Shown here one piece after another: positions 2,857 to 22,075 of a stretch of 64,000 nucleotides of DNA (position 1 is the stretch's first letter; each line of letters begins with the position of its first letter). The notes beneath the pieces are model-generated. The model ran no database searches. It saw only the letters and a list, made by a program, of their open reading frames with translations, and was not told the origin of the DNA. This DNA comes from a virus. The stretch is taken from positions 73,493 to 137,492 of the IMG/VR virus record IMGVR_UViG_3300020190_000010; one strand, written 5' to 3'. The position numbers and the translations under genes were made by a program.

Positions 2857-3641
2857 TGGATTCCAATAGATTGAGCATAGATATTGTTCTACGGACACAT
2901 AGTTTCATAGATATTCATGCTAATCCAACACCAAGATATTGTGGTGTTGATAAAACTACATTGGTTATTAAGTGTATTAAGTCATTGATTCAGTCTGCAG
3001 AACAATATGATGGAAAGATTCACTTTGTTTGGTTTGATGACCATTCATCACAAAAATTGATCGATGGGTTACATGACATTTTCAAAACATCTAAACACAC
3101 ATATGAGTTTAACCCATTAGAATTGCGTGGATGGAATGCATCTGGACATGCACAATTTGATAGAGGTCGTTCATCTACTGCCGATTTAGTTTATTTTGTG
3201 GAAGATGATTACCTACATTATCCGAATGCAATACTTGATATGGTGGACGCTTACATTCGTTTCAAAACGAATTTAGGAACAGAAGTTGCCATTCACCCAT
3301 ACGATGATCCAGATAATTACTTACCAAAGTTTATTGATGAAACTCGCGTTGTTCTCGGTAGAGATAGACATTGGAGAACAAACAAGTATTCAACATTTAC
3401 TTTTATGTGTAATCCTGAAATAGTCCGTAAGTTCTGGAGTAGATTTTATACTTGTGCAACTGAATACATGACAGAGTGGGGTGAGGCAAATGAAATACAA
3501 GAAGGAACTACTATCAATCATATTTGGCGTTGGGAAGTGAAGTTATTTACACCAATACCGTCACTTGCTCTTCATATGGGTTATGAAAGACAATTAGATC
3601 CTTATATTGATTGGAAGAAATTGTGGAATTTAATTCAGTAA
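2856..3641 (+). CDS. GT-A fold (GT2-like) glycosyltransferase
   Basis: N-terminal beta strand, FDDHS and DLVYFVEDDYLH acidic motif; translationally coupled to the upstream GT. Confidence 0.7.
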   Translation: MDSNRLSIDIVLRTHSFIDIHANPTPRYCGVDKTTLVIKCIKSLIQSAEQYDGKIHFVWFDDHSSQKLIDGLHDIFKTSKHTYEFNPLELRGWNASGHAQFDRGRSSTADLVYFVEDDYLHYPNAILDMVDAYIRFKTNLGTEVAIHPYDDPDNYLPKFIDETRVVLGRDRHWRTNKYSTFTFMCNPEIVRKFWSRFYTCATEYMTEWGEANEIQEGTTINHIWRWEVKLFTPIPSLALHMGYERQLDPYIDWKKLWNLIQ

Positions 3642-3684
3642 TCATATTTATTGATATGATATTTAATGAACAAAGGAATTTCCA

Positions 3685-6399: not shown

Positions 6400-7524
6400 A
6401 TGAACCCAGCAACTTTCAAGTCGATGCTTACTCCCGAAATGGGAACAAATAATGTTACAGATACAGACCACGCTGCACAAATACTTGCTGATGCATATGA
6501 TTTGGCAAACATAGGTTCTAGTTGCACATTTTTTGGTTCATCAGTTATTAGTGGTGATAAAGATACATTGCAAAAATTTATCAAGTTAGCTTTTGATACC
6601 AATAAAACTACAAATACAAAAGAAGGTTTTATTTTAATGGCAACTGGATTTTGTGCATATTGGTTGAAAGCTATATTTACACCATTACCAACTTTGCCTC
6701 CTACGATAAGTCCGTTAAAAGGCACAACTGTTCTTTTTCCAGGAGAACCTACGGAATTGGAAAAAGATTTAATAAAGGCATTTGACCAACCAGAATTTGA
6801 AATGTTTGCTGATACATTGTATAATGCATTAGTTGCACATCATACTAAAATAGCAGGAACATATAATGGACTAATACCCGCTTTTCCATCACCAATTCCT
6901 GGTATATTGCCTTGGGTTGCAATTTTAAGTGCACCTTTACCTGATACAGGAACTTCCGGCACAAGTGGAAAGGATGGATCATCTGGAACAAAAGGTAATG
7001 GTGGAACTGGTGGAACATCTGGAACTGGTGGAACATCTGGAACTGGTGGAACATCTGGAACTGGTGGAACATCTGGAACTTCTGGTTCTGGTGGAACTGG
7101 TGGAACATCTGGAACTGGTGGAACATCTGGAACTGGTGGAACATCTGGAACTTCTGGTTCTGGTGGAACTGGTGGAACATCTGGAACTTCTGGTTCTGAT
7201 AAAGGTATGGGTGGGTTCGATACAAAAGGAGTTTCTGATTATAGAGTAAAGTTAAGATTATCTAATATAGTTCGTAGTGTTGATGGAAAATATAATGCAG
7301 ATTCTATAATAAGATTTGCTTTAAGTGACTTCCAAAGACCTGTACCTAACCAAATAAAATATGATAGTACGTTTAATAAAAAATTGATACCAGAGATTGG
7401 AAACTTAAAAGGACAAGATAGAAATAGATTATTTTACATATTCGATTATATGATTGAACAAAAAAATCTTGAATTAGACAATATAACTGGATATGTAAAA
7501 TATGGATCAGTTAAAATAACATAA
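6400..7524 (+). CDS. Hypothetical virion protein with Gly/Thr/Ser repeat linker
   Basis: Long ORF with a central (GTGGTS)n tract. Confidence 0.7.
   Translation: MNPATFKSMLTPEMGTNNVTDTDHAAQILADAYDLANIGSSCTFFGSSVISGDKDTLQKFIKLAFDTNKTTNTKEGFILMATGFCAYWLKAIFTPLPTLPPTISPLKGTTVLFPGEPTELEKDLIKAFDQPEFEMFADTLYNALVAHHTKIAGTYNGLIPAFPSPIPGILPWVAILSAPLPDTGTSGTSGKDGSSGTKGNGGTGGTSGTGGTSGTGGTSGTGGTSGTSGSGGTGGTSGTGGTSGTGGTSGTSGSGGTGGTSGTSGSDKGMGGFDTKGVSDYRVKLRLSNIVRSVDGKYNADSIIRFALSDFQRPVPNQIKYDSTFNKKLIPEIGNLKGQDRNRLFYIFDYMIEQKNLELDNITGYVKYGSVKIT
6949..7197 (+). repeat. 18-bp tandem repeat GGAACTGGTGGAACATCT encoding GTGGTS
   Basis: About 10 near-identical in-frame copies with GTSGSG variants. Confidence 0.9.
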
Positions 7525-8231: not shown

Positions 8232-8603
8232 ATGAAGTATTTAATTGCCCTATTATTTTCAGTAACAACTGTGTTTGCAGTTGAAAATGACTCTGTTATA
8301 TGTTTTAAGAAAACCGATGTGGTGAAGATGGCAAATCGTATTCAACTAATTCGTGATTCAGTTGAATATCTAACCGCAGTTGTAAATGCTCAAGATACTT
8401 TAATAGAATTTCACCAAACTCGTTTTGACTTATATCACCAACAATTAAAAAATCGTGACCAAGCTATTGATGCTTGTAAAAAAAGAAGTGTAGAATTGGA
8501 AAAAATTATTGATGAACTCCAACCAAAATGGTATGATAATAAATTACTTTGGTTCTTTACTGGTGTTGGAACTACTCTTGGGATAGTATTTGCAGTTCAA
8601 TGA
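8232..8603 (+). CDS. Signal peptide, coiled coil and C-terminal TM (spanin-like partner)
   Basis: MKYLIALLFSVTTVFA signal, coiled coil, C-terminal KWY...hydrophobic segment. Confidence 0.4.
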   Translation: MKYLIALLFSVTTVFAVENDSVICFKKTDVVKMANRIQLIRDSVEYLTAVVNAQDTLIEFHQTRFDLYHQQLKNRDQAIDACKKRSVELEKIIDELQPKWYDNKLLWFFTGVGTTLGIVFAVQ

Positions 8604-10183
8604 GTAAGAATCTAAAAGATATTATCAAAGAAGAATACGCAAAGTGTGCCGCTAATCCGGTATACTTTATGAAGCGTTATGCTAAAATTCAACATCCAAC
8701 CCGTGGCAAGATATTATTCGACCTATATCCATTTCAGGAAGATGTCCTCAAAGAATTTAACACTAACCGGTGGAACATTGTATTAAAGTCTCGTCAGTTA
8801 GGTATATCCACAGTTATTGCTGGATATTCACTTTGGTTGATGTTATTCAATCAAGATAAAAACATTCTTGTTATTGCTACAAAACAAGAAACTGCTAAAA
8901 ACTTGGTTACAAAAGTTCGTGTTATGTATGATAATATGCCAAGTTGGTTAAAGACTGGTGTTCAAGAAGATAATAAACTTTCACTCCGATTTAAGAACGG
9001 TTCACAAATTAAAGCCGTTTCTGCTGCAGCTGACTCTGCTCGTTCTGAAGCACTTTCACTTCTTATCATAGACGAGGCCGCCTTTATTGATGATATAGAT
9101 AGAATATGGGCATCTGCACAACAAACACTTGCAACCGGTGGTACTGCAATAATCAACTCTACTCCAAATGGTGTTGGTAATTTTTATCATAAACAATGGG
9201 TAAATGCAATAAACAAAGAAAGTGCATTTAATCCAATAGAATTATTATGGCAAGTTCATCCAGACCGTGACCAAAAATGGCGCGATGAACAAGACAAACT
9301 ATTGGGTCCTAATATGGCAAAACAAGAGTGTGATGGAAATTTTCTTACATCTGGTCGTTCCGTAATTGATGGTGAACTTGTCCAATGGTATGAACAAACT
9401 TATGTGTGTGAACCAAAAGAACGGCGTGGTGCAGAGGATGCTTATTGGATTTGGGATTATCCAGAACCAAATAAAACATATATGGTTATTGCTGACGTTG
9501 CTCGTGGTGACGGAAATGATAATTCAGCATTCCATGTGATTGATGTAGAAAATATGGAACAAGTTGCAGAATACAAAGGTAAACTCGATACAAAAACTTA
9601 TGGTAATATGTTAGTATCAGTTGCAACAGAATATAACGATGCTCTTCTTGTAGTTGAAAATGCTAACATTGGGTGGGCAGCAATTCAACAGATTATTGAT
9701 AGAGGTTATCCAAATCTTTATTATACATACCGTGAAGATGGGTATACTGATCCATCCGTTCATATTCCAAAGGGTTATGACTTAAAAGACAAGGCACAAA
9801 TGATTCCTGGATTTACTACAAGTGCTAAAACAAGACCACTTTTGATTTCAAAATTGGAAACATATTTTCGTGAAAGATTACCAATAATAAAGTCTTCAAG
9901 ATTAACACAAGAACTATATGTGTTTGTTTGGAATGGTGCAAAGGCAGAGGCACAAACAGGATATAATGATGACTTGGTTATGTCATTTGCAATAGGACTT
10001 TGGGTTAGAGATACTGCTCTAAAACTTCGTCAAGAAGGACTGATGAAGACACGAATGAGTTTGGATTATATGGGGAAATCAACAACACCACTAAAACCTT
10101 CATATCAATATGGAGATGACCTACATGGTTGGAATATGACAGTCAATGGTCAAAATGAAGACCTTACTTGGTTAATAAAATAG
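8600..10183 (+). CDS. terL: Terminase large subunit (T4 gp17-like)
   Basis: LYPFQ, KSRQLGIS (Walker A variant), LLIIDEAAF (Walker B), STPNG, and nuclease ADVARG...DDLVMS. Start at ATG 8600 overlaps the upstream TGA. Confidence 0.95.
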   Translation: MSKNLKDIIKEEYAKCAANPVYFMKRYAKIQHPTRGKILFDLYPFQEDVLKEFNTNRWNIVLKSRQLGISTVIAGYSLWLMLFNQDKNILVIATKQETAKNLVTKVRVMYDNMPSWLKTGVQEDNKLSLRFKNGSQIKAVSAAADSARSEALSLLIIDEAAFIDDIDRIWASAQQTLATGGTAIINSTPNGVGNFYHKQWVNAINKESAFNPIELLWQVHPDRDQKWRDEQDKLLGPNMAKQECDGNFLTSGRSVIDGELVQWYEQTYVCEPKERRGAEDAYWIWDYPEPNKTYMVIADVARGDGNDNSAFHVIDVENMEQVAEYKGKLDTKTYGNMLVSVATEYNDALLVVENANIGWAAIQQIIDRGYPNLYYTYREDGYTDPSVHIPKGYDLKDKAQMIPGFTTSAKTRPLLISKLETYFRERLPIIKSSRLTQELYVFVWNGAKAEAQTGYNDDLVMSFAIGLWVRDTALKLRQEGLMKTRMSLDYMGKSTTPLKPSYQYGDDLHGWNMTVNGQNEDLTWLIK

Positions 10184-10202
10184 AGTTTGTATTTTTTCCT
10201 AC

Positions 10203-10210
10203 ATATTTAT
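10203..10210 (+). promoter_or_regulatory. Putative phage late-promoter motif ATATTTAT (representative copy, before portal)
   Basis: The same 8-mer occurs in about 20 intergenic regions; see the corresponding finding. Confidence 0.65.
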
Positions 10211-10242
10211 ATTAAGTTTATATTACATAAAATAGGTGACAA

Positions 10243-12108
10243 ATGGCACAAAATAAATCATTGTTTGATAGACTAAAAACACTTTTTTCTACTAATGTTG
10301 TTGTTCGTAATGTTGGTGGTAAAAAATTAAAAGTTGTTGATACTGCTCGCTATCAAGGTGATGGAAACCCACACACATCAAAAGTTATTGATAGATATGG
10401 CAGATTACATGGAACAAAGGGAACACCAATATCAGTATACAATCAATACAATTCATTCGCAGCAACAAAAATAGATCTTTATACTGATTATGAATCAATG
10501 GACACAGATGCCATAATATCATCTGCACTTGACATATATGCAGATGAAAGCACACTCAAAAATAATCAAGGTGATGTTTTAACTATCAAAACTGACAATG
10601 ACAATATACGTAAAATTCTTCGTAATCTTTTTTATGATGTTCTTAATATAGAATATAATCTTTGGCCATGGATTCGTAATCTTTGTAAATACGGTGATTT
10701 TTATTTGTATATGGATGTAAAGGAAGAATTGGGTGTTACAAATGTTGTTCCGTTTTCACCATATGAAGTTCAAAGAGAAGAAGGAACTGATCCGGAACAT
10801 ATCTATATGACAAAATTTGTATACGAAGGTCCTCTTGGTAGAGGTGAATTTCAAAATTATGAAATGGCACATTTTAGATTATTAGGTGATACTAATTATC
10901 TTCCTTATGGTAAATCAATTTTAGAAGGTGCTCGTAAACTTTACAAACAACTAGTTTTAATGGAAGATGCGATGTTGATACATCGTATTATGCGTGCTCC
11001 TGAAAAACGTATTTTCAAAGTTGATATTGGTAATATACCACCGGCTGAAGTAGACCAATACATGAATAACCTTATGAATAGAATGAAGAAGACTCCCGTT
11101 ATCAATGAACAGACTGGTGACTACAATCTCCGTTTTAATATGCAAAATCTTTTGGAAGACTTTTATCTTCCTGTTCGTGGTGGACAATCTGGTACACAAA
11201 TTGAAACACTTGCAGGTTTACAATATCAAGCAATTGAAGATATTGAATATCTTAAAAGTAAAATATTTGCTGCCCTAAAAGTTCCAAAACCGTATTTGGG
11301 CTATGATGAAAGTATAGAAGGAAAGGCAACACTTGCCGCTCTTGATATTCGTTTTGCTAGAACAATAGAAAGAGTACAGAGAATTGTGATTTCTGAATTG
11401 ACAAAGATTGCTATTGTTCATCTATATTCACAGGGATATGAAAATGCAGATTTGGTAAACTTTGAATTGGGATTAACAGGACCTTCTATCATATATGAAC
11501 AAGAAAAAGTTGCTCTTATGAAAGAAAAAGTGGACTTGGCGGGAACACTGATAGAAAAGAAACTATTTTCATTGAAATATATTTATTCAAACATATTTAA
11601 CCTTTCAGAAGACGAAGCAGAATTTGAAAAGAATGAAGTTCTTGAAGATATTAAACATATGTTCCGTCAAAAACAAATTGAAAATGAAGGAAATGATCCA
11701 GCAGTAACAAAGGAGTCATTTGGAACACCACATGATATTGCAAGTATGCAAATTCGTGGTGGTAGTAAAATGATAACCGATAATGAAGTTCCAGAAGGTG
11801 GTTGGCCTGGAGCTGGTAGACCTGCTAAGAATTTAAGTTATGGAACAGATAACAGTCCATTTGGCAGGGATCCAATCGGAAAGAAAGATATTGGTAATAC
11901 ATTGAAGGTTAATAATTCACCAAAAGTAAATTACAAAGGAAATTCACCGTTATCACTTGAAAACCGTGATATAGGTAAATTGATAGATAGTATGTCCGGT
12001 ATAAAGATTAAAACAAAAAAAATAATATCGGAAAGTCTTAAACCGACTATTAAACACGAAAATGAATCAAATTTGTTGAATGAGAACAATTTATTAGATG
12101 AATTGTAA
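10243..12108 (+). CDS. gp20: Portal protein (T4 gp20-like)
   Basis: LMEDAMLIHRIMRAPEKRIFKVDIGN, EDFYLPVRGG, ALKVPK. Confidence 0.95.
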   Translation: MAQNKSLFDRLKTLFSTNVVVRNVGGKKLKVVDTARYQGDGNPHTSKVIDRYGRLHGTKGTPISVYNQYNSFAATKIDLYTDYESMDTDAIISSALDIYADESTLKNNQGDVLTIKTDNDNIRKILRNLFYDVLNIEYNLWPWIRNLCKYGDFYLYMDVKEELGVTNVVPFSPYEVQREEGTDPEHIYMTKFVYEGPLGRGEFQNYEMAHFRLLGDTNYLPYGKSILEGARKLYKQLVLMEDAMLIHRIMRAPEKRIFKVDIGNIPPAEVDQYMNNLMNRMKKTPVINEQTGDYNLRFNMQNLLEDFYLPVRGGQSGTQIETLAGLQYQAIEDIEYLKSKIFAALKVPKPYLGYDESIEGKATLAALDIRFARTIERVQRIVISELTKIAIVHLYSQGYENADLVNFELGLTGPSIIYEQEKVALMKEKVDLAGTLIEKKLFSLKYIYSNIFNLSEDEAEFEKNEVLEDIKHMFRQKQIENEGNDPAVTKESFGTPHDIASMQIRGGSKMITDNEVPEGGWPGAGRPAKNLSYGTDNSPFGRDPIGKKDIGNTLKVNNSPKVNYKGNSPLSLENRDIGKLIDSMSGIKIKTKKIISESLKPTIKHENESNLLNENNLLDEL

Positions 12109-12159
12109 AATTGCCTATATTTATTCTATGAAAGTGCACATAAACAGGTATAAGGAACA

Positions 12160-13002
12160 ATGAAGAAAATTAAACATTCTAAATTCAAAAATACTGCAAT
12201 GCTGTTTGAGTTATTGACTCGTCAAATAACATCAGACATCATTTCCTCCAACGAATCTGTTGCCATTCAGATTCTCAAAAAATTCTTTAATAAGAACACA
12301 GAACTTATTAAAGAATATAAATTGTATAAAACCCTTTGTGATGAAAAATTAAAGTCAGACACAAAGGCAAATATGTTAATAGAGGCAGTATTGAAAGCAA
12401 GACGTGGATTAAACAAACATAAATTACAGAACGAAAAGTATGAATTGATAAAATCAATCAAAGAAAACTTTGATATTGATACATTTTTTCAAACAAAAGT
12501 TCAAAATTACAAACTTCTTGCTTCCGTATACAAAGTTTTTGAATATAATGAATTGGATAATCCAGTTGAAATTACAAAGTCTCGTATAACCATACTTGAA
12601 AGTATAACATCAAAACAAAATACATCCGTAATAACCGAAGATGTTGCTATTGCACAGGAACCAAAAGAAGTTCGTTTGATGGCTTACAAGTATCTTGTTG
12701 AAAAATTTAATGCAAAATATAGTAATTTAACGGAATCACAAAAGGTATTATTACGAGAATACATAGAAAATGTTAGTAATACAAATAACTTAAAGTCTCT
12801 TGTTCAAACAGAAGCGGTAACTATAAAAAGATTGTTTACAAAAAATATGCATAGGGTAAAAGACAAATCTCTAAAAATAAAATTACAAGAAGTTGCAGGA
12901 CTTTTGGATGAATATGAAACGATAAAGAAAGTAGAAGAAAATCATATCTCTGCTCTACTTCGTTATTACAGTTTAATAGACGATTTATCATGGAGTAAAT
13001 AA
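12160..13002 (+). CDS. Hypothetical head-module protein
   Basis: Long ORF with TAAGGA SD, between portal and protease. Confidence 0.7.
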   Translation: MKKIKHSKFKNTAMLFELLTRQITSDIISSNESVAIQILKKFFNKNTELIKEYKLYKTLCDEKLKSDTKANMLIEAVLKARRGLNKHKLQNEKYELIKSIKENFDIDTFFQTKVQNYKLLASVYKVFEYNELDNPVEITKSRITILESITSKQNTSVITEDVAIAQEPKEVRLMAYKYLVEKFNAKYSNLTESQKVLLREYIENVSNTNNLKSLVQTEAVTIKRLFTKNMHRVKDKSLKIKLQEVAGLLDEYETIKKVEENHISALLRYYSLIDDLSWSK

Positions 13003-13322
13003 TGGCAGTTAATCAAATACACCCATATAATTTTCCTGCTTCACAGGCAAGTGAATTTGAAAGAAAGGGGCATCCTGGAAAATTCTTTCAATCAATAACT
13101 TGTGAAACCGGAACTACAACTTTTACTTCCTCTAATTTTGGTGCAGGTGGTATAATTGTACCAAATGGAACTACGGGAACTGCATCATTGTCTTTAGGTG
13201 GGACCATTCCACTTTCTGCTATGGCCAGCACTGCTGCAGTTATACACGAATTATCATTACAGAGTGTAACGGTGGATAGTGGAACCGTATATGTTTTAAT
13301 TCGTAATCAAATGATTAGGTAA
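13002..13322 (+). CDS. Hypothetical beta-rich protein (possible capsid decoration)
   Basis: Coupled ORF, G/S/T-rich. Confidence 0.55.
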   Translation: MAVNQIHPYNFPASQASEFERKGHPGKFFQSITCETGTTTFTSSNFGAGGIIVPNGTTGTASLSLGGTIPLSAMASTAAVIHELSLQSVTVDSGTVYVLIRNQMIR

Positions 13323-13325
13323 TAT

Positions 13326-13829
13326 ATGAATGTAGAGTCTTTCATAAAAAAATTAAAAGAATCAGAAGAATACCGTCAGTTTGCAGAAGAATTATCATTA
13401 GATGAAATGAGCACAACTGCTGGTGTTCCCGGATACCAAACGCCAAATGCTTTTGCTAAGAGTGAAGAAGATTTTGAAGAACACAACAAAGAAACTGCAG
13501 AAGTTTATGGATATAAACTTGTTCCTAAAACAAAAAAGAAAAATTATGAATCAACCTACAAACAGGCAATGGGTTTAATTTCGGAAGGAACATATAAAGA
13601 TTTTAGAACGGATGAAACAAGAAGTTCAAACAGAAAAATAAATGATTCAATTAAGAATATAAATAGAACAATCTACGAAGTAGAAAGAGTTGTTGAACAT
13701 GCATTGAGATTAAAAACAGAAATGAATGTTGATCAAAGAACTCTTTGGGGTGAATCAATGACTAGATTGAGAAAAATATCCGAAAGAATAAATAGAATTA
13801 CAAAAAAGATTAACGAATTAGGTGCATAA
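13326..13829 (+). CDS. Hypothetical head-module protein
   Basis: LDE|MSTTAGVPGYQTPNAF motif followed by a coiled coil. Confidence 0.65.
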   Translation: MNVESFIKKLKESEEYRQFAEELSLDEMSTTAGVPGYQTPNAFAKSEEDFEEHNKETAEVYGYKLVPKTKKKNYESTYKQAMGLISEGTYKDFRTDETRSSNRKINDSIKNINRTIYEVERVVEHALRLKTEMNVDQRTLWGESMTRLRKISERINRITKKINELGA

Positions 13830-13831
13830 AA

Positions 13832-14503
13832 ATGAAAGAACTACTCGTAGACACCATACTTTTTAATGTAAATCCAAAAATGATTACCGAATCTGAAAAG
13901 AAAAATGACGGTAAAGTTATAGTTTCGGGTGTTTTACAAAGAGCTGAAGTAAAAAATCAAAATGGTAGAGTATATCCTAAAAAGATTTTAATGCGTGAAG
14001 TTAAGAAGTATACCGAAAATCAAATAAAAGAAAATCGTGCGCTCGGTGAACTTGATCATCCAGATTCATCGGTTATCAATCTTCGTAATGTTTCACATAA
14101 TGTTCTCGGTGTAGATTGGAAAGGTAATGATGTAGTTGGAACAGTTGAGATACTACCAACACCATCCGGAAATATCCTAAAACAACTTCTTGATGCGGGT
14201 ATTCGTCTTGGAATATCATCAAGAGGTTTAGGTTCTGTTGAAGAAATAAGTGAAAGCACAGTTGAAGTTCAAGATGATTTTGAATTGATTGGTTGGGATT
14301 TTGTTTCAAACCCATCAACTCATGGTGCATTTATGTATCCACAAGGAATGAAAGAAGGTTTACATGAAGAATTGATTACAGAAGGTATATCAACTTCAAC
14401 AATTGCAAAAATAGATCCTAAAATAAATCGCATCCACAATAATATAACAAACATTATTTGTGAAATTGGTAATGTTTGTGAATGTATATTTGATGGAAGA
14501 TAA
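13832..14503 (+). CDS. gp21: Prohead protease (T4 gp21-like)
   Basis: NQNGRVYP, ALGELDHP, VSH, GISSRGLGS, DFVSNPS. Confidence 0.95.
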   Translation: MKELLVDTILFNVNPKMITESEKKNDGKVIVSGVLQRAEVKNQNGRVYPKKILMREVKKYTENQIKENRALGELDHPDSSVINLRNVSHNVLGVDWKGNDVVGTVEILPTPSGNILKQLLDAGIRLGISSRGLGSVEEISESTVEVQDDFELIGWDFVSNPSTHGAFMYPQGMKEGLHEELITEGISTSTIAKIDPKINRIHNNITNIICEIGNVCECIFDGR

Positions 14504-14505
14504 CG

Positions 14506-15102
14506 ATGCCGGCATTATCACAACAGCAACAGAAGTTAATGGGACTTGCACTCTCTTACAAAAGAGGTAAAGTTGCTTCAAGTGATGTTAGTAAATCTGT
14601 AAAGGATTTGGCGTCATCAATGTCTGAAAAAGAATTAGAAAAATATGCTAGAACATCACATAAAGGTCTTCCTAAAAAAGTTGGTGAAACAAAAACATCA
14701 ATGACAAGAGAAGAAATAAATAAACTTGTTTCGGATGCTGTTCAAGAAGTAATGAACGAAAAATTTAGTACAAAAGTTCTTACATCTGAACAAAAACAAC
14801 AATATATTGAGGCAATTTCAAAATACAATCAATACAGAGAGGTAGTTCATCGTTCAAAGGCACTACCAGAAATAGTTTCTGAAATAAAAAGACTTGTTGA
14901 ATTTGCAAGTAAAAACATGGTTGAGGAGTCTGGCGATTGGTTTGAAGGTGTATCACATAGAAGAAACTCAAAAAGATTGAGAGAATCTGTAAATGAATTT
15001 CAAAAAATATCGGAAAAAATTGTTAAATTACAAAGAACCCTGGAGTCTATCTACGAGAACATAGGTAAACAACTCGGAACATTTTACGAAATAAAAAAAT
15101 AA
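14506..15102 (+). CDS. Hypothetical protein (PAxSxxQQKLMGLAL...HKGLPKK N-terminal module)
   Basis: Basic N-terminal module followed by a helical domain. Confidence 0.65.
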   Translation: MPALSQQQQKLMGLALSYKRGKVASSDVSKSVKDLASSMSEKELEKYARTSHKGLPKKVGETKTSMTREEINKLVSDAVQEVMNEKFSTKVLTSEQKQQYIEAISKYNQYREVVHRSKALPEIVSEIKRLVEFASKNMVEESGDWFEGVSHRRNSKRLRESVNEFQKISEKIVKLQRTLESIYENIGKQLGTFYEIKK

Positions 15103-15110
15103 AGGAAAAA

Positions 15111-15344
15111 ATGGTTATGTCAGACAGAGTTTATACCAGTTCAAAACCTGCTCATGTTAAAGTTAAGGCAGGTGGAATGAATGTAGATACAATGATTAAG
15201 GTATTTAAACGTAAGGTAAAGGAAGCCGGTATTCTTGAAGAATATAAAAACCGCATGGAATATATTAAACCATCAAAAAGAAAATCTGAAAAAAGAAATG
15301 CTGCTGTAAGAAGACAGAGAAAACTCGATTCAGAAAACATTTAA
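15111..15344 (+). CDS. rpsU: Ribosomal protein bS21
   Basis: VKV....NVDTMIKVFKRKVKEAGILEEYKNRMEYIKPSKRK..KR.AA.RR matches the bS21 signature (FKR...G...E.K.R..Y.KPS). Confidence 0.9.
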   Translation: MVMSDRVYTSSKPAHVKVKAGGMNVDTMIKVFKRKVKEAGILEEYKNRMEYIKPSKRKSEKRNAAVRRQRKLDSENI

Positions 15345-15354
15345 TGGAGATAAA

Positions 15355-16545
15355 ATGACCTTTGCTAGTATTGAAAAACTAATCCGTGACGAAACACGGA
15401 AAGTTATTGAAAACCTGGAAAGGTCTTTTTCGTTATCAGAAGAAGACGAAAAACCTGCAAGCGAAGATCCTAAAAAAATGCTTGTTGTTAATAAAGAAAG
15501 TGGAAAGTCGTATTACATAAGTAAAAAAAGTTTTGATCCAACAAAACATCAAAAATCTGCTCCAAAAGAAACTACAAAAGAAGAAGAAGAAGAAACTTCT
15601 TCAGAAGAAACATCAACTGATTCTGAAGAAGAAATTAAAACCGATGATTCAAAAAAAGAAGATTCTGCAACTTCTGATGAAGAAAAACCAAAAGGTGATG
15701 CGGGTGATAAAGCAGAAAAAAAACCAGAACAAAAACCAAAAGAACCAAATGAAGAAAAAACTGGATTAAAAACTGTTGGTTTTTTGAATAAAGTTGATGC
15801 AGAAAAATTAGATACCAAAACAGACAATCTATATCCAAAAACACGTGAACAACTGTTGGAATATGATTATGAAGATATAATTGATATGTATGATTTAAGA
15901 TTTGATGAAGATGGGGTAAATTTTAAAAAGTTATACAAACGAGCAGAAATGATTGCAGTATCAAAGTATTCTTTAATAACACCAAAATCAATAGATAAAG
16001 AAACTCTAATGGCATTGGGTTATTATTATTTGAATACTGAAAGAATAATTAACATATTGAGATTTGCTAAACCAAGTTTAACAAAACCTGAAATACAAAA
16101 ACAATTAAAGTTAGGTAAACCAAAAGAAGGCGATAAAAGGGAAAAACAATATAAAAGTGCAATGAATGCATTTACTATTCGTGAAATGAACTATGCATTT
16201 GACGAACAATTACAAAAATTAGAATATAATATAGTTTCATATCGTTCCGTAGAAAATGAAAAAGTATTACAAATGTTTATTGATGCAGGACAATGGGTAG
16301 ATAAATCGTTTGTAACAACATCATTAAACCCTTTAATTACAGAAGGAACTGGAAAAAAGAGATTGCCATTATTTGAATTTTTAATTCCTGCTGGAACGTC
16401 TATACTAACATTACCATGTCACTCAAATGATTATTGTCACGAAACAGAGGTAACACTTCCAAGAAATTGTAGATATACTATACAAGGATTTAACGATACC
16501 AGAAATATTTACAAGATATTAGTGGAGCAAAACTATGGCCGATGA
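15355..16545 (+). CDS. ADP-ribosyltransferase (VIP2/Alt-like R-S-E class) with acidic N-terminal linker
   Basis: YY...IN..LR, then SYRSV (R), FVTTSL (STS-like) and HETEVTLPRN (ExE). Confidence 0.8.
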   Translation: MTFASIEKLIRDETRKVIENLERSFSLSEEDEKPASEDPKKMLVVNKESGKSYYISKKSFDPTKHQKSAPKETTKEEEEETSSEETSTDSEEEIKTDDSKKEDSATSDEEKPKGDAGDKAEKKPEQKPKEPNEEKTGLKTVGFLNKVDAEKLDTKTDNLYPKTREQLLEYDYEDIIDMYDLRFDEDGVNFKKLYKRAEMIAVSKYSLITPKSIDKETLMALGYYYLNTERIINILRFAKPSLTKPEIQKQLKLGKPKEGDKREKQYKSAMNAFTIREMNYAFDEQLQKLEYNIVSYRSVENEKVLQMFIDAGQWVDKSFVTTSLNPLITEGTGKKRLPLFEFLIPAGTSILTLPCHSNDYCHETEVTLPRNCRYTIQGFNDTRNIYKILVEQNYGR

Positions 16546-16663
16546 AAAGAAAATAGATACAAAAGACCGAAATAAGAGATACATCTATACAGAAAATGAT
16601 GCAAAATCAATCTTTCAGTATGATCCTACAAAAAAACCTATCGAAAAAATAGAAAAAAAATAA
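16535..16663 (+). CDS. 42-aa small protein overlapping the ART stop (absent from the ORF track)
   Basis: GGAG at 16524-16527, ATG 16535, MADEKKIDTKDRNKRYIYTENDAKSIFQYDPTKKPIEKIEKK, TAA 16661-16663. Confidence 0.55.
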   Translation: MADEKKIDTKDRNKRYIYTENDAKSIFQYDPTKKPIEKIEKK

Positions 16664-16771
16664 CTTTCCTTATACTTATACTTACATAATACTCTATTCG
16701 TTATAGAGTCCGATATTATTTTTTATTGCAATTAGTGTTTCAAATAACACTAAAAATAGTTGGAGATTTTT

Positions 16772-17845
16772 ATGAATGATTTATTGAAAGAAGCTATTGC
16801 AGATGCAAAAGCCGTTAAGGAAGTAGCATTAGCAAACGCTAAATTGGCATTGGAAGAAGCATTCACTCCGCGTTTGCAGTCTATGCTTTCCAAAAAGTTG
16901 GCAGAGGAGGCAGAAGCCGAAGAGCCAGTTGAGGAAGGTGAGGGTGAAGAAGAAGCACCCGTAGAAGAATACGGATTTTATAGCGAAGGTGATGATGAAG
17001 AACCTGCTATGGAAGAAGGTGAAGGCGAAGAAGAAAAGGTTGAAGAAGCCGAAGAAGAAGAAGAAAAGGTTGAAGAAGCTGAAGGTGAAGAAGAAGAAAA
17101 AGTTGAAGAAGGTGAAGATGAAGAAGAACCAATGGATGAAGAATTGATGGAGATTATTCGTCAATTAGAAGAAGACATTGATTCATCCGAAATCGGTGGC
17201 GGTGACAACAAGAAACCTTCCGCAGTTGCATCTGATGACAGCACAGAAGATAAGGGTGAAAAACTTGTTCAACTTGTTGAAGAAGAAGATGAAGATTCCG
17301 AAGAAGTTGCTGAAATCAAAGAAATTCTCCGTGCTCTTCGTGAAGAAGAAGAAGGTGAAAAGGCAGAAGAAAAAGTTGAAGAAGGTGAAGATGAAGAAGA
17401 AGTAGACATCAAAGAAGTTCTCCGTGCTCTTCGTGAAGAAGAAGACGAAGAAAAAGTTGAAGAAGCTGAAGAAGAAAAGGAAAAGGAAGTGGCAGAAGCA
17501 AAACTTCGTGAAGCTTATGCTGTAATTTCTTTCTTGCGTTCTAAAATCAATGAAGTCAATCTTTTGAACTCAAAATTGCTCTTCTCTAACAAGTTATTCC
17601 GCAAGCATTCACTCAATGAAAAACAAAAAATGACTGTTATCGAAAACTTTGATCGTGCATCAAGTCTTCGTGAAGTTAAATTGGTCTATGCTACACTTTG
17701 CGAATCGTTGAGAACAACAAAGATTAAACAAATTAAAGAATCTTTCGCGTCAAAACCAACCGCAAGTACCCGCCCATCAAAACCAATCTTGAATGAAGGT
17801 GATGATATGGCAAATCGTTTACGTAAATTAGCAGGTTTGAAATAA
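16772..17845 (+). CDS. gp22: Prohead scaffolding/core protein (gp22-like)
   Basis: Very Glu-rich, directly upstream of the MCP, C-terminal RLRKLAGL; GGAG SD before ATG 16772. Confidence 0.8.
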   Translation: MNDLLKEAIADAKAVKEVALANAKLALEEAFTPRLQSMLSKKLAEEAEAEEPVEEGEGEEEAPVEEYGFYSEGDDEEPAMEEGEGEEEKVEEAEEEEEKVEEAEGEEEEKVEEGEDEEEPMDEELMEIIRQLEEDIDSSEIGGGDNKKPSAVASDDSTEDKGEKLVQLVEEEDEDSEEVAEIKEILRALREEEEGEKAEEKVEEGEDEEEVDIKEVLRALREEEDEEKVEEAEEEKEKEVAEAKLREAYAVISFLRSKINEVNLLNSKLLFSNKLFRKHSLNEKQKMTVIENFDRASSLREVKLVYATLCESLRTTKIKQIKESFASKPTASTRPSKPILNEGDDMANRLRKLAGLK

Positions 17846-17863
17846 TTTTTTAAGGAAAAAACA

Positions 17864-19501
17864 ATGAGTATACAAAATTTATTAAATACTTCTGGGAATC
17901 CCCACAAGCAACTTATCAAAGAAAACAAGCAAATTGTCAATAAATGGGCAAAAACTGGTCTTCTTGATAATTTGAAAAACGAATATGAAAAGAACTCTAT
18001 TGCAGTTCTTCTCGAAAATCAAGCAAAACAACTTATCGACGAATCAAGCAGAACAGGTACAGCAGCTGGTTCAGAAGAATGGGCAGGTGTTGCACTTCCA
18101 TTGGTTCGCCGTATTTTCTCTGAAATTGCTGCGAAAGATTTTGTTTCTGTTCAACCAATGAACTTGCCTTCTGGTCTTGTGTTCTTCTTGGACTTCAAAT
18201 ATGGAACAGCACAACCTGGTTTCACTGCTGGATCCGGTAAAGATTCACAAGCTGATTCAGTATTTGGTGTAACAGGTAAAGATGCAAAAGATGCTGATCC
18301 TTCAGGCGGTCTTTATGGTGCAGGTCGTTTCGGTTATTCAATCAATGAGGCACAAATAACATCTACAAAAGCTGCTGCATTGTCTTCAACAGAATTTACA
18401 ACCGGATCTGTATCACACTCAACACCATCATTGTTCCAACATGACACAGAATTTAAAGATGCTTACTCTGCATCACTCGCAGCTGGTCATATTATGACTA
18501 TCACAGTTCAATCTGCATCTTTCACAACACCTGATCTTGAGGCAGTTCGTGCTTTCAAAGTATCTGGCTCAACAATTCTTGGTTATTTCCCACAATACAC
18601 AACAACTGCAAACAATGGTTCAACCATTACTTTCGTTGTTTCTGCTTCTGCTGCTCCTGCAACAGTAGGTATTGCTTATGAGAAACAACCAACTTCCACA
18701 ACACGTAATGACTTTGAAGAAGGTTCAGCTGGTTCAGATTTGGGTATACCAGAAATCAATCTTGAATTGCGTTCAGAGTCCATCGTTGCTAAAACACGTA
18801 AGTTGAAGGCAGTATGGACACCTGAATTTGCACAAGATTTGAATGCTTATCACTCAATTGATGCTGAAGCTGAATTGACATCTATGTTGTCTGAATACAT
18901 TTCACAAGAAATTGATTTGGAAATTCTTGATATGTTGATTAAGAATGCACAAACAACAGAAAGATGGTCAGCTCGTATTGGTCGCACATATGATGCTTCT
19001 ACAAGTGCATTTGGTGACTATTCATCTGCTCAGGCACAGGCATCCGCTTACAATCAACAAACATGGTTCCAAACACTTGGCACAAAGATTCAAAAAGTAT
19101 CAAACGTAATTCATCAGAAAACACTTCGTGGTGGTGCAAACTTCCTCGTATGTTCTCCACAAGTTGCTACAATACTTGAATCAATGCCTGGCTATGCAGT
19201 TGATGGTGAAGGTATGAAATTCGCAATGGGTGTTCAAAAAGTTGGTCAATTGAATGGCCGTATCACAGTTTACAAGAATCCTTACATGCTTGAAAATCAA
19301 GTTCTTGTAGGTTTCCGTGGAACACAATTCCTCGAAACTGGTGCTGTGTATGCTCCATACATTCCACTTGTAATGACACCGTTGGTATATGATCCAACGA
19401 ACTTCACACCAAGAAAAGGCGTGATGACTCGTTATGCGAAGAAGATTGTTCGTCCAGAGTTCTATGGTCTTATACAAATCGATTCTCTCGGTGACATCTA
19501 A
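17864..19501 (+). CDS. gp23: Major capsid protein (T4 gp23-like)
   Basis: LPLVRR, VSVQPMNLPSGLVF, AKTRKLKAVWTPEFAQDL, YAPYIPL, PRKGVMTRYA; LIDE as the probable maturation site. Confidence 0.97.
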   Translation: MSIQNLLNTSGNPHKQLIKENKQIVNKWAKTGLLDNLKNEYEKNSIAVLLENQAKQLIDESSRTGTAAGSEEWAGVALPLVRRIFSEIAAKDFVSVQPMNLPSGLVFFLDFKYGTAQPGFTAGSGKDSQADSVFGVTGKDAKDADPSGGLYGAGRFGYSINEAQITSTKAAALSSTEFTTGSVSHSTPSLFQHDTEFKDAYSASLAAGHIMTITVQSASFTTPDLEAVRAFKVSGSTILGYFPQYTTTANNGSTITFVVSASAAPATVGIAYEKQPTSTTRNDFEEGSAGSDLGIPEINLELRSESIVAKTRKLKAVWTPEFAQDLNAYHSIDAEAELTSMLSEYISQEIDLEILDMLIKNAQTTERWSARIGRTYDASTSAFGDYSSAQAQASAYNQQTWFQTLGTKIQKVSNVIHQKTLRGGANFLVCSPQVATILESMPGYAVDGEGMKFAMGVQKVGQLNGRITVYKNPYMLENQVLVGFRGTQFLETGAVYAPYIPLVMTPLVYDPTNFTPRKGVMTRYAKKIVRPEFYGLIQIDSLGDI

Positions 19502-19523
19502 ACCGTATTGGGTTAATAAAAAT

Positions 19524-19567
19524 AAAGGAGTGAGAAAAATCTCACTCCTTTTTTGTTTTTTTTTTTA
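19524..19567 (+). terminator. Intrinsic terminator after the MCP gene
   Basis: AAAGGAGTGAGA-aaaa-TCTCACTCCTTT followed by a long T run. Confidence 0.85.
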
Positions 19568-19651
19568 TTTTAATTTATATTTATTTGTGAGTGTTCAAAC
19601 GGATCACTTTTTTTACAAATATGTAATTTTTAGTAATAATGGGAAATTGAT

Positions 19652-20662
19652 ATGAAACAGACTAACAAAAAGAGAAGACTGTTTGAAGACGATGAAATAC
19701 TTGGAACTACCGATGTTCTAGGTTTAAGTAAAGTTCCAAAAGATGCTGCAAAAGCTGCTATTGGTGCCGGAACAAAAGACGGTGATCCAAAAGACGATGT
19801 TGCTGCTGGTAAAAAAGTTTCTATTGCTGCTAGTGCATTGAAAGCAGCACAAACAGAAATTATTCCAGAGAAGGCACTTGGTATGGCAATAGGAATGATA
19901 AATAAAGTTGGAATTTTTAGTGGAGGTCCTGGAGGAGATTTGGAATCCATAATTTCAGCAGATAATTATATTATGGATGGACACCACCGTTGGGCAGCAA
20001 CATTTCTTGCGGATCCCGGTGCAAGTATTACTGCAACTCAAATAGAACTTCCAGGTAAAGCACTTGTTAGTGCACTAAATGTTGTAACAGTAGGCCAATT
20101 TGGTCGTGGTGGTAATGCTGGTAAAGGAAATATAGCTGATTTCAAAGGTCCTGTATTTGCAAAAATAATAGACACATGGAAAGAAAAGGGATATAAAGAT
20201 GATAAAGGGAATGAAACAAAACCAGAGGATGTAACTAAAGCAATGGAAACTCTTGGTGGTGGTGATTTCGAGGCCGGTAAAAAAGTTGTTATGGCTAATG
20301 CAGATAAATTACCAAAAGAAATTATGCCTGGTGCTCCTGCAAGAATTGAAATGCCGGTTATCAACGGTAAAGAAGTTGATGGTGTTGCAAAGGCAATTGC
20401 AGCTGGTGAAATAGATATTAAGCCACCATATAGTCCAGATGTAAAAGATAAAATGGAATCGTATTATCAAATGCGTCGTGGATTAAAACCATTAAGAGAA
20501 TCTGTTATTAAAAAACTTGTTGAATATAATACTAAAAATAAAAAAAGATTACAAGAATCTTATGTTAAGAAAGTTAAAAAACAAAGACTTCAAGAAAAAT
20601 TAACACGATTACTTAAACCAATTGTTGCTGAAATTCTGAATAGTAAATTAAAGAAAAAATAA
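19652..20662 (+). CDS. ParB/sulfiredoxin-like domain protein
   Basis: LKAAQTEI and IISADNYIMDGHHRWAA. Confidence 0.7.
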   Translation: MKQTNKKRRLFEDDEILGTTDVLGLSKVPKDAAKAAIGAGTKDGDPKDDVAAGKKVSIAASALKAAQTEIIPEKALGMAIGMINKVGIFSGGPGGDLESIISADNYIMDGHHRWAATFLADPGASITATQIELPGKALVSALNVVTVGQFGRGGNAGKGNIADFKGPVFAKIIDTWKEKGYKDDKGNETKPEDVTKAMETLGGGDFEAGKKVVMANADKLPKEIMPGAPARIEMPVINGKEVDGVAKAIAAGEIDIKPPYSPDVKDKMESYYQMRRGLKPLRESVIKKLVEYNTKNKKRLQESYVKKVKKQRLQEKLTRLLKPIVAEILNSKLKKK

Positions 20663-20776: not shown

Positions 20777-22075
20777 ATGAAATCTAAAATTAAAAAATCA
20801 GACTCATTGAAACATCTTGTAAACGAAGTAATGTCCGAGCAAAACATTACATCTAGATTTAATACTGTAAATAGTGGAGCAGTATCACTTGATGAACAAG
20901 CGATAATTTCATTGTTAAAATCCAATATTTTTACATTAAATGAACAAAAGGCATTAAAAGTATTATTTTCAAAAACAAAAACAAAATCATTAACAGAAAC
21001 TACTGTTAAATTATTAGATGAAAATGTCAATATAATATCCAATTCATCGGAAATAGAATTGAGATTGAAAGAAGGATTTTTTGGGGATATATGGGATGGT
21101 TTGAAAGGTTTGGGTGATAAGGCAAAAGAAGCAATAGTAGGTGGTTGGAATAAATTAAAAAGTATATGGGCAGAATTTAAGGAACTTGTCCAAGAAGTAA
21201 TCAATTCAGCAAAAAATGGTTTGTTAAAATTATGTAACATGGGCGCAAATGTTGGAAATGTTGGGAAAGAAATGGTAGGCAAACTTAAAGATAAAAAATT
21301 AATTGCTGATCCAGATTTTATTAAAGAACTCAAACAATTAAGTGATACATGTGGTTGGTGGAAAACAAGTTGGTTTCAAAAATGGGTTGTTGCACCATTC
21401 TGGGAAAAAGATGTATTAGCAGGAAAAGGAACTGTTGATCAAGAACCTAAAATAGATTCAAAGGCGGCAGAACAAGGTTTGACTGCTATACCGGCATTAG
21501 AAAGTTTTATCAGTAAAAGAAATGAATTACTTTCAAATAATAAAGTTGTAACCGAATTACTGAAAAGAAATCAGAGAAGAAATACTCTAAAAGAAGGATA
21601 TGCGGTAGAACATCTTGATGATGCTATAAAAAATCCAGCATTAAAAAAAGTTGTTCATTATGCCATAGAATTGATACAATGGGTTTTTATGCCATTTGCT
21701 AAATTAGGACAAGTTGTTGCAAAGTGGGTAGGTCCAAAGGCACTTGGAGCTTTTTCAAATTTAACAAAAACAGTTGGTGGTCCTGGTGTTTATGGATTTG
21801 AACTACTTGGAACTCTATTTGGTGAAATAATGGAAATTTTTGTTAAAAAGAAAACTGGAGAAATAACAGTAGAATTAGTTGCAAAGATATTATTTCCTGG
21901 AGTTGGTGTTGGGGTTGATATAATAAAGGCAATACATTATGCATTATTAGCATGGACAGTAGCAAATATATGTATAAATTTAGTAGATAGTGTAGAAAAA
22001 GTAAAAACAGAATCATATAAATCAACTGGTAAATTCAAAATAAAAGAAGGTAATTTACTTTATATTAAGAAGTAA
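20777..22075 (+). CDS. Hypothetical protein with amphipathic/hydrophobic helices
   Basis: LKE|GFFGDIWDGLK amphipathic helix and a hydrophobic C-terminal third; start placed at ATG 20777. Confidence 0.65.
   Translation: MKSKIKKSDSLKHLVNEVMSEQNITSRFNTVNSGAVSLDEQAIISLLKSNIFTLNEQKALKVLFSKTKTKSLTETTVKLLDENVNIISNSSEIELRLKEGFFGDIWDGLKGLGDKAKEAIVGGWNKLKSIWAEFKELVQEVINSAKNGLLKLCNMGANVGNVGKEMVGKLKDKKLIADPDFIKELKQLSDTCGWWKTSWFQKWVVAPFWEKDVLAGKGTVDQEPKIDSKAAEQGLTAIPALESFISKRNELLSNNKVVTELLKRNQRRNTLKEGYAVEHLDDAIKNPALKKVVHYAIELIQWVFMPFAKLGQVVAKWVGPKALGAFSNLTKTVGGPGVYGFELLGTLFGEIMEIFVKKKTGEITVELVAKILFPGVGVGVDIIKAIHYALLAWTVANICINLVDSVEKVKTESYKSTGKFKIKEGNLLYIKK

Follow-up and report, generated by a model that had tools for sequence, protein, structure and literature searches.

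bS21 is the ribosomal protein most commonly found in phages. The stretch of DNA analysed here (the window: 64,000 nucleotides (nt), bases 73493-137492 of the 137,492-bp linear virus record IMGVR_UViG_3300020190_000010, GC 33%) comes from a freshwater myophage that is T4-like and has a genome of about 175 kb (record completeness 78% by CheckV). It carries a bS21 gene among its head genes, and most genes of this phage are led by Shine-Dalgarno (SD) sequences. The locus raises the question of whether a phage-encoded bS21 can change which mRNAs the host ribosome selects. Our main reading, to which we assign a probability of roughly 0.4, is that the phage bS21 enters the host 30S subunit, frees the anti-SD and favours SD-led phage mRNA. 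The identity of the gene, the SD enrichment, the change at a residue involved in anti-SD sequestration and the family-wide co-occurrence of bS21 and SD leaders were observed directly.

The phage bS21 and the Shine-Dalgarno leaders

The open reading frame (ORF) at 15111..15344 on the plus strand, of 77 amino acids (aa), matched PF01165 Ribosomal_S21 (48.8 bits, E 5.6e-13, cut-off 27) and TIGR00030 (48.5 bits, cut-off 28.95), and its product aligned to solved bS21 chains in the PDB. The core FKR...KPS (F30, K31, R32, K51, P52 and S53) was invariant across 19 clade members. A search of 5.8 billion proteins returned 119 homologues that were 65-97% identical, on contigs reaching 183 kb; because these homologues are mostly 75 aa long, the true start is probably ATG 15117, which would give a protein of 75 aa. 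Both family matches and the gene order agree with an earlier reading of the DNA made from the sequence alone (the sequence-only reading), which had placed a bS21 gene here within the head module. We conclude that this ORF encodes a genuine phage ribosomal protein bS21.

The clade to which this protein belongs is isolated. Among cluster representatives, 322 matches were found at E <= 1e-3 and just 5 at E <= 1e-10; a scan of genome contigs with the phage bS21 alignment gave no bacterial relatives; and a scan of viral contigs (P0133) for a Tyr-bearing near relative returned the same clade and two distant loci only. Similarity pointed to no phylum, the best bits being similar in the three phyla searched, i.e. 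37.4 in Bacteroidota (94/101 genomes matched), 36.5 in Cyanobacteriota (57/61) and 40.0 in Pseudomonadota (55/61).

phmmer aligned residues 21-66 of the query to residues 8-53 of 7jil_z, which we take to be a Flavobacterium johnsoniae ribosome chain, and residues 18-67 to residues 6-54 of 9i5v_9, in which residue 54 is Tyr. Similarly, hmmalign placed Arg67 (77-aa numbering) in the Tyr54 column of P0134 and of two flavobacterial bS21 proteins from metagenome-assembled genomes (MAGs), one Flavobacteriaceae and one Flavobacterium, both of which read Tyr-Ile where the phage protein reads Arg-Arg. In the signatures described for Bacteroidetes, Tyr54 stacks on A1534, Ile55 makes a contact and the C-terminal part is less basic (Jha et al. 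2021, PMC7797042). Of these anti-SD-sequestering features of the Bacteroidia type, the phage protein has neither Tyr54 nor Ile55, and its C-terminal part is not weakly basic: the segment after KPS lacks an aromatic residue and has a net charge of +6, compared with +2 in the flavobacterial MAG proteins L252 and L253. Judged from its residues, the C-terminal part is basic as in SD-using bacteria. The sequence-only reading had put Arg in the Tyr54 position with no aromatic residue after KPS, and had proposed an alignment with Bacteroidota bS21 as a check; both programs agree with it, and Arg stands where the Tyr equivalent would be.

To count SD leaders, an ORF was scored as SD-led if it paired with ACCUCCUUA at dG <= -3.45 within -18..-4, a threshold and an anti-SD string that we assumed. 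ORFs came from a crude caller (greedy longest ORFs, without SD information). By this count, 85/144 ORFs were SD-led in the whole record and 35/62 in the window. By comparison, the controls for the whole record gave 22/144 inside genes, 24/144 at -63..-49, 332/2000 for random 15-mers and 456/2961 upstream of internal ATGs, i.e. 15-17% overall. Among ORFs of at least 80 aa, 77/123 were SD-led, or 82/123 if counted from the first ATG. G frequency was maximal at -11..-7, and the motifs were canonical (GGAG, AGGAGG, AGGTGA). All 15 SD sites cited as examples in the sequence-only reading were present 3-7 nt ahead of their start codons, and three of them correct starts that the caller had set too far upstream; its claim that most genes are SD-led held in the whole-record count. 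We conclude that the SD signal exceeds chance.

The leaders were not confined to one part of the genome. In a left-end minus-strand block of small ORFs that lie behind repeated promoter cassettes, and which we infer to be early genes, 14/25 ORFs were SD-led, typically with the leader AAGGA(A)ACAACC-ATG. In three plus-strand blocks, the counts were 12/19, 23/37 and 36/61 (59-63%).

Co-occurrence of bS21 and SD leaders in the phage family

No phage record matched the DNA of this record. By protein, the nearest cultured relative was Microcystis phage Mel-JY01 (PP395634.1), with 71% identity in the major capsid protein (MCP), 65% in the large terminase TerL and 50.6% in bS21; other relatives by MCP were Flavobacterium phage immuto (54%), the uncultured 484-kb LR756508 (53%) and Rhodothermus phage RM378 (39%). 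Mel-JY01 showed full synteny in the head module, with RpsU likewise located between the prohead protease and MCP. immuto had the same gene order and no bS21 across its 160,410 bases, and RM378 likewise had none. By the same SD count, this phage had 59% SD-led ORFs (controls 15-17%) and Mel-JY01 109/245 (44%; controls 15-16%), both with bS21. Of the two phages without bS21, RM378 had 33/153 (22%; controls 16-18%) and immuto 12/226 (5%), with A-rich leaders and a fraction below its controls of 20-25%. Moreover, in 35 loci of the clade of this phage, 312/638 ORFs were SD-led versus 89/648 in the control.

To compare SD use in relatives with and without bS21, a check that the sequence-only reading had proposed, an MCP alignment was used to draw 80 IMG/VR loci and 46 loci from species-representative genomes, the latter all MAGs or uncultured bins. 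bS21 was scored with a purpose-built hidden Markov model, and absence was called only with at least 3.5 kb of DNA upstream of MCP. A FastTree phylogeny of 111 MCPs contained 81 scorable rows, in which an SD fraction of at least 0.35 was called high; RM378 was left unscored, as were loci that had fewer than nine ORFs or too little DNA 5' of MCP, MCP pieces shorter than 480 aa and MAG rows with less than 45% identity. Among the scorable rows, 57 had bS21 and high SD, four bS21 and low SD, four no bS21 and high SD, and 16 neither. The IMG/VR loci with bS21 (n = 54) had a median SD fraction of 0.57 (0.14-0.91) and those without (n = 11) a median of 0.29 (0.05-0.65); 10 of these 11 contigs had no bS21 elsewhere, although they are only 4-30% fragments. 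MAG loci with cover split cleanly into those with bS21 (53-75% SD) and those without (4-17% SD). On the tree, an immuto-like clade of 18 rows had no bS21 in its scorable rows and SD fractions of 0-17% (loci with at least nine ORFs). The remaining 93 rows were mostly bS21-positive and SD-rich, and included an inner bS21-negative clade of 12 rows with SD fractions of 0.09-0.47.

Several observations weigh against a causal tie between bS21, or its Tyr54 column, and SD use. The MCP tree holds only three independent bS21 changes, and an independent-pairs test had three pairs and no power. There were exceptions in both directions: the single locus L176, which also falls among the 93 rows outside the immuto-like clade, lacked bS21 and had an SD fraction of 0.65, while the bS21-positive loci L095 (6/33), L191 (0.14) and L193 (0.26) were SD-poor. 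Among 58 bS21 proteins of the family, the Tyr54 column held 28 Arg, nine Lys, 13 Leu, five Tyr, and one each of Ala, Val and Met. The loci of the five Tyr proteins were still SD-rich (0.44-0.67); the LR756508 protein, which has Met, accompanied SD use at background (6/33); and the SD-poor L191 has Arg. Several Arg or Leu forms carried Trp or Tyr 3-4 residues further on. Moreover, the six Bacteroidota-phylum bS21 proteins most like that of the phage were Arg-Arg too, and two cellular genomes with Arg-Arg were about twofold SD-enriched, the samples being small (14/35 versus 7/35 and 8/27 versus 4/28).

We conclude that the co-occurrence of bS21 and SD leaders across the family is real but heavily pseudo-replicated, the MCP tree needing only three bS21 changes. 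The proposed check came out in favour of co-occurrence, with three independent contrasts behind it. The loss of Tyr54 is neither a determinant nor a predictor of SD use in the family and is not the switch, given SD-rich Tyr loci and SD-poor Met and Arg loci.

Arg-Arg bS21 proteins of cellular origin (L263-L268) were found in genomes of the GTDB phylum Bacteroidota (G030, G101, G112, G035, G040 and G097), and with such genomes the Tyr54 idea could be put to a natural test in cells. An uncultured Flavobacterium MAG (G017) had its own Tyr-type bS21 on contig C79 and, on three short contigs (C196, C197 and C207), differing bS21 genes of the phage type.

Proposed mechanism, host and alternative explanations

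bS21, whose place is on the platform of the 30S subunit beside the 16S 3' end, binds late and at the surface. In the mechanism considered here, phage bS21 would enter host 30S subunits, ribosomes carrying it would have the anti-SD tail free for pairing, and SD-led phage mRNAs would be favoured over SD-less host mRNAs; incorporation, anti-SD release and the gain in translation are steps that we infer. In F. johnsoniae, the Y54A substitution, loss of the C terminus or depletion of bS21 increased expression of SD reporters 3- to 5-fold (PMC9976891). No paper connecting phage bS21 with SD-led genes of phages was found, most subscription journals being outside the coverage of the search. If the mechanism is true, it would clearly exemplify a virus that re-tunes the mRNA selection of the ribosome and would explain why phages keep bS21 genes; if the host uses SDs, the finding is that of an ordinary phage bS21.

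The host is, in our judgement, quite probably a member of Bacteroidota and, with somewhat less assurance, likely to be one of the SD-blind Bacteroidia; it may also lie inside the phylum Bacteroidota but outside the SD-blind class. The evidence is mixed, with Bacteroidota signals set against the recorded host of Mel-JY01. The kinship with immuto (Flavobacterium) and RM378 (Rhodothermus) favours a host in Bacteroidota. By record titles, 17 of the 46 MAG capsid loci (14 MAGs) were labelled Bacteroidota and one Ignavibacteriaceae; none was from Cyanobacteria proper (one was Melainabacteria), the others being unnamed bins or scattered groups, and such labels are subject to binning errors. On the tree, Bacteroidota labels made up 6/13 of the MAG rows in the bS21-positive part and 7/16 in the immuto-like clade, i.e. 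both phage types were alike in their Bacteroidota share. A Fib_succ_major protein was also present.

The early promoters supplied a second line of evidence. A model seeded on four copies found 17 distinct cassettes in this record and four relatives; TAnnTTTG is retained in 15/17, and so is, in 15/17, TTTG 19 nt upstream, while variation falls on the two n's (TAca, TAgc, TAtc). The published promoter consensus is TTTG/TANNTTTG (-33/-7), refined to TAHHTTTG (PMC6847099, PMC9723704). The core (TT)CGTATATTT(G/A) was common to Mel-JY01 and immuto, a proven Flavobacterium phage. Weighing against this line, a sigma-70 type reading of the early promoter (TTGATC-16 nt-TATATT) is equally open. A first regular expression for the promoter found no sites in immuto, which was meant as the positive control, so that its count alone proves little; immuto uses the variant box TATATTTAGG. 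The cassette extends over about 90 nt (TTTG, 19 nt, TAnnTTTGTA, then an AACAACC-rich leader and an AAGGA site) and lies on the minus strand of the full record at 3252-3561, 12313-12505, 11058-11105 and 791-856, with copies in relatives (L196-L205). AACAACC was seen 10 times in intergenic DNA versus 1.15 expected.

Third, the contig of the closest relative (bS21 100%, MCP 95% identical) has a gene for a signal-peptide protein of 142 aa that bears a type A sorting domain for type IX secretion (the T9SS), scoring 35.2 bits with TIGR04183 (cut-off 23) and 23.3 bits with PF18962, under the cut-off of 27. The T9SS is described as confined to Bacteroidetes (PMC7906972, PMC5445135). This point is weakened by the fact that the gene was found in one relative only, in a stretch absent from the present contig, and the domain was absent from three other relatives examined. 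The gene adjoins one for a 391-aa signal-peptide protein without a family match.

The strongest alternative, which we consider possible though short of probable, is that the host natively uses SDs, being a cyanobacterium, a non-Bacteroidia member of Bacteroidota with Arg-Arg bS21, or another bacterium; the SDs of the phage would then merely suit that host, its bS21 would top up or replace a loosely bound, late-assembling protein on which SD-dependent initiation relies, and no hidden anti-SD would be unmasked. The recorded host of Mel-JY01, Microcystis elabens, argues for this explanation, as do the SDs on early and late genes alike and the cellular Arg-Arg genomes with some SD enrichment. By the same counting method, three cyanobacterial genomes had 33-43% SD, close to the 44% of Mel-JY01, and the best PDB score was to 6v39_u, a 71-aa bS21, at 32.9 bits versus 22.1 bits for 7jil_z. 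(A calibration of SD use in high-GC genomes was rejected as unusable, longest-ORF start calls being poor there.) Against a natively SD-using host stand the Bacteroidota labels on 6/13 MAG rows of the bS21-positive clade, none of which is cyanobacterial, the T9SS sorting domain, and the variable positions of the promoter cassettes, which fit TAnnTTTG. Moreover, neither psbA nor nblA was found in five records (this record, Mel-JY01 and three relatives), which is weak evidence, and the 59-67% SD of this phage is above that of the cyanobacterial samples. Finally, the immuto clade is SD-poor and lacks bS21 while its MCP is at least 50% identical, and this kinship means that the explanation would need jumps between host phyla inside one phage family. 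Mel-JY01 itself groups with Flavobacterium and Rhodothermus phages and has promoters of the form cTTGCAT-N14-TTCGTATATTTGTA; its recorded host deserves checking.

Less probable, in our view, is a Bacteroidia host in which bS21 and SD-like leaders are causally unlinked, with their co-occurrence due to shared ancestry. Purine-rich leaders might then act, for example, via low structure or a minority of bS21-less 30S subunits, and phage bS21 might have another role: during infection it might, for example, complete or protect ribosomes, or act against a translation-stalling defence of the host. The three independent changes beneath the association, the exceptions in both directions and the variation of the Tyr54 column with no tie to SD use all speak for such an explanation; in the literature, so do the proposal by Chen et al. 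of counter-defence and a generic preference for phage mRNA (PMC9723584) and the finding that bS21-less F. johnsoniae ribosomes translate the SD-led rpsU mRNA (PMC9976891). By contrast, it sits poorly with canonical motifs that peak at the canonical distance, with an SD fraction in immuto under its own background, and with the fact that both bS21-less clades are lower in SD than their bS21-positive neighbours.

For the mechanism of anti-SD release, the timing of expression matters. By position, bS21 is probably a late gene of the head operon, co-transcribed with the head genes: it has a late-promoter-like element upstream and, downstream, the terminator that follows MCP (Table 1). Early genes, however, are SD-led as often as late ones, which counts against the mechanism in its simplest form: because early genes are SD-led while bS21 is late, a simple timed switch does not fit, and early SD-led mRNAs would have to be read by unmodified ribosomes. 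A bS21 made late does not account for their translation, which leaves three possibilities: a host that itself reads SDs, translation of these mRNAs by 30S subunits free of bS21, or arrival of bS21 with the virion. Since early genes are SD-led and the gene lies among prohead-core genes, bS21 is possibly present in the virion, and Chen et al. raise virion delivery of bS21 as a possibility (PMC9723584). An extended version, in which a T4-like Bacteroidia phage family has a private start code through a swap of bS21 and virion-borne bS21 possibly acts from injection, seems to us somewhat less probable than the main reading. In total, anti-SD release by phage bS21 is plausible and testable, but weaker in this lineage than the sequence-only reading held, because the host is unproven, Tyr-to-Arg is not predictive, there is no contrast between early and late genes, and only three independent contrasts are available. 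Tools for such tests exist, i.e. the F. johnsoniae rpsU mutants and reporters (PMC9976891) as well as the cultured phages immuto, which lacks bS21, and Mel-JY01, which has it.

The head operon and comparison with known systems

Gene functions were assigned by PHROG and Pfam scans (Table 1). bS21 shares its strand with all head genes; genes for PhoH, tail sheath, tail tube and tape measure come after MCP, and the hairpin just past MCP is the first strong terminator-like one on the plus strand.

Table 1. Features around bS21 and in the closest relative; positions are those of the window unless another contig is named
Feature	Position	Strand	Basis or remark
Large terminase TerL	8549..10183	+	phrog_2, E 2.8e-48
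ATATTTAT late-promoter-like element before portal gene	10203..10210	+	
Portal protein, AGGTGA SD	10243..12108	+	phrog_213, E 6.8e-68
ATATTTAT late-promoter-like element, nearest one 5' of bS21	12117..12124	+	36 nt before ORF 12160
Prohead protease	13832..14503	+	phrog_207, E 1.9e-55
DUF3008 protein, directly 5' of bS21, 8-nt gap	14506..15102	+	PF11450, E 2.2e-14
AAAGGA SD-like motif	15101..15106	+	4 nt before ATG 15111, 10 nt before ATG 15117
Arg-Arg codons in Tyr54-Ile55 columns of bS21	15303..15308	+	phmmer, hmmalign
396-aa protein without assigned function, 10-nt gap 3' of bS21, GGAG SD	15355..16545	+	
Very acidic scaffold-like protein, GGAG SD	16772..17845	+	translation; no family match
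Major capsid protein MCP, TAAGGA SD	17864..19501	+	phrog_138, E 2e-74
Terminator-like hairpin, 12 pairs then T run	19524..19551	+	closes head operon
T9SS-domain protein of closest relative	L293 1495-1920 = G001:C1:24730-25155	-	TIGR04183

ATATTTAT probably serves this phage group as its late promoter. It occurred 37 times on the plus strand versus six times on the minus strand, 20 copies sit 22-39 nt ahead of a plus-strand start, and the 7-mer TATTTAT was seen 34 times in intergenic DNA versus 2.55 expected. The T4 late promoter, for comparison, is TATAAATA. In the window, plus-strand copies lie at 3644, 7531, 10203, 12117, 19577, 20725, 26258, 26617, 29154, 29750, 30895, 35213, 42787, 47103, 47554, 50058 and 58476, and a similar motif, TATTTAA, was enriched in RM378. 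Promoters of the sigma-70 type were not enriched in 9500-20500 (36 found versus 44.6 expected), and Rfam gave no match within 12000-20000.

The scaffold and MCP genes were covered by relatives' contigs (mostly 90-95% alike) in four metatranscriptome runs from fresh water; bS21 was covered in two of the four runs, from two studies (X1 at 15125-15349 and X3 at 15029-15338). Such contigs indicate presence in an RNA library and are no proof of transcription, and parts that they leave uncovered are uninformative. At 16954-17507, within the acidic scaffold-like gene, 280-430 nt are missing or replaced in the RNA-library contigs of relatives, which points to Glu-rich repeats that vary in length between strains.

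Elsewhere in the window, a 2488-aa ORF (35242-42708) lies 3' of the tape measure gene and had no PHROG or Pfam match. Outside the window, the full record carries a ClpP protease gene at 21241-21900; McNutt et al. speculate that bS21 phages carry a protease against host bS21 (PMC9976891). In the early region, on the minus strand at 6877-7029 of the full record, tRNA-Met(CAT) adjoins tRNA-Glu(TTC). As an initiator, this tRNA-Met is ruled out by its G1-C72 pair and by an anticodon stem without a run of three G-C pairs.

Among known systems, Pelagibacter phage HTVC008M is the one whose bS21 was reported to be taken up into ribosomes of E. coli in vivo (Mizuno et al. 2019, cited in PMC9976891). It differs from the phage described here in its alphaproteobacterial host, and it was neither among the bS21 tblastn matches at E <= 1e-3 nor among the MCP and TerL matches listed. 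Mel-JY01 is closer: its RpsU is 50.6% identical, occupies the same position and has no aromatic residue after KPS, and its genome is SD-rich; the difference lies in its recorded cyanobacterial host. The F. johnsoniae mutants (McNutt et al. 2023, PMC9976891; Jha et al. 2021, PMC7797042) share with our main reading the proposed release of the anti-SD, but they are host mutants with an rpsU autoregulatory loop and no phage protein, and an exchange of bS21 by phages is only speculated on (PMC9976891).

The closest precedent is provided by Chen et al. 2022 (ISME Commun 2:31, PMC9723584), who put forward a replacement of host bS21 by phage bS21 in the ribosomes of Bacteroidetes. Their phages, from freshwater Bacteroidetes, are likewise large myophages with a Clp protease, and their bS21 gene has TerL, portal, prohead protease and MCP as its neighbours. 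The passages of that paper available to us do not treat SD leaders on phage genes. The bS21 genes of those phages run on the reverse strand within the conserved structural block, whereas here the gene has the same orientation as the head genes. Moreover, each of their 61 bS21 proteins has Tyr54 or a different aromatic residue, which led them to infer a host-like function, whereas the phage described here has Arg.

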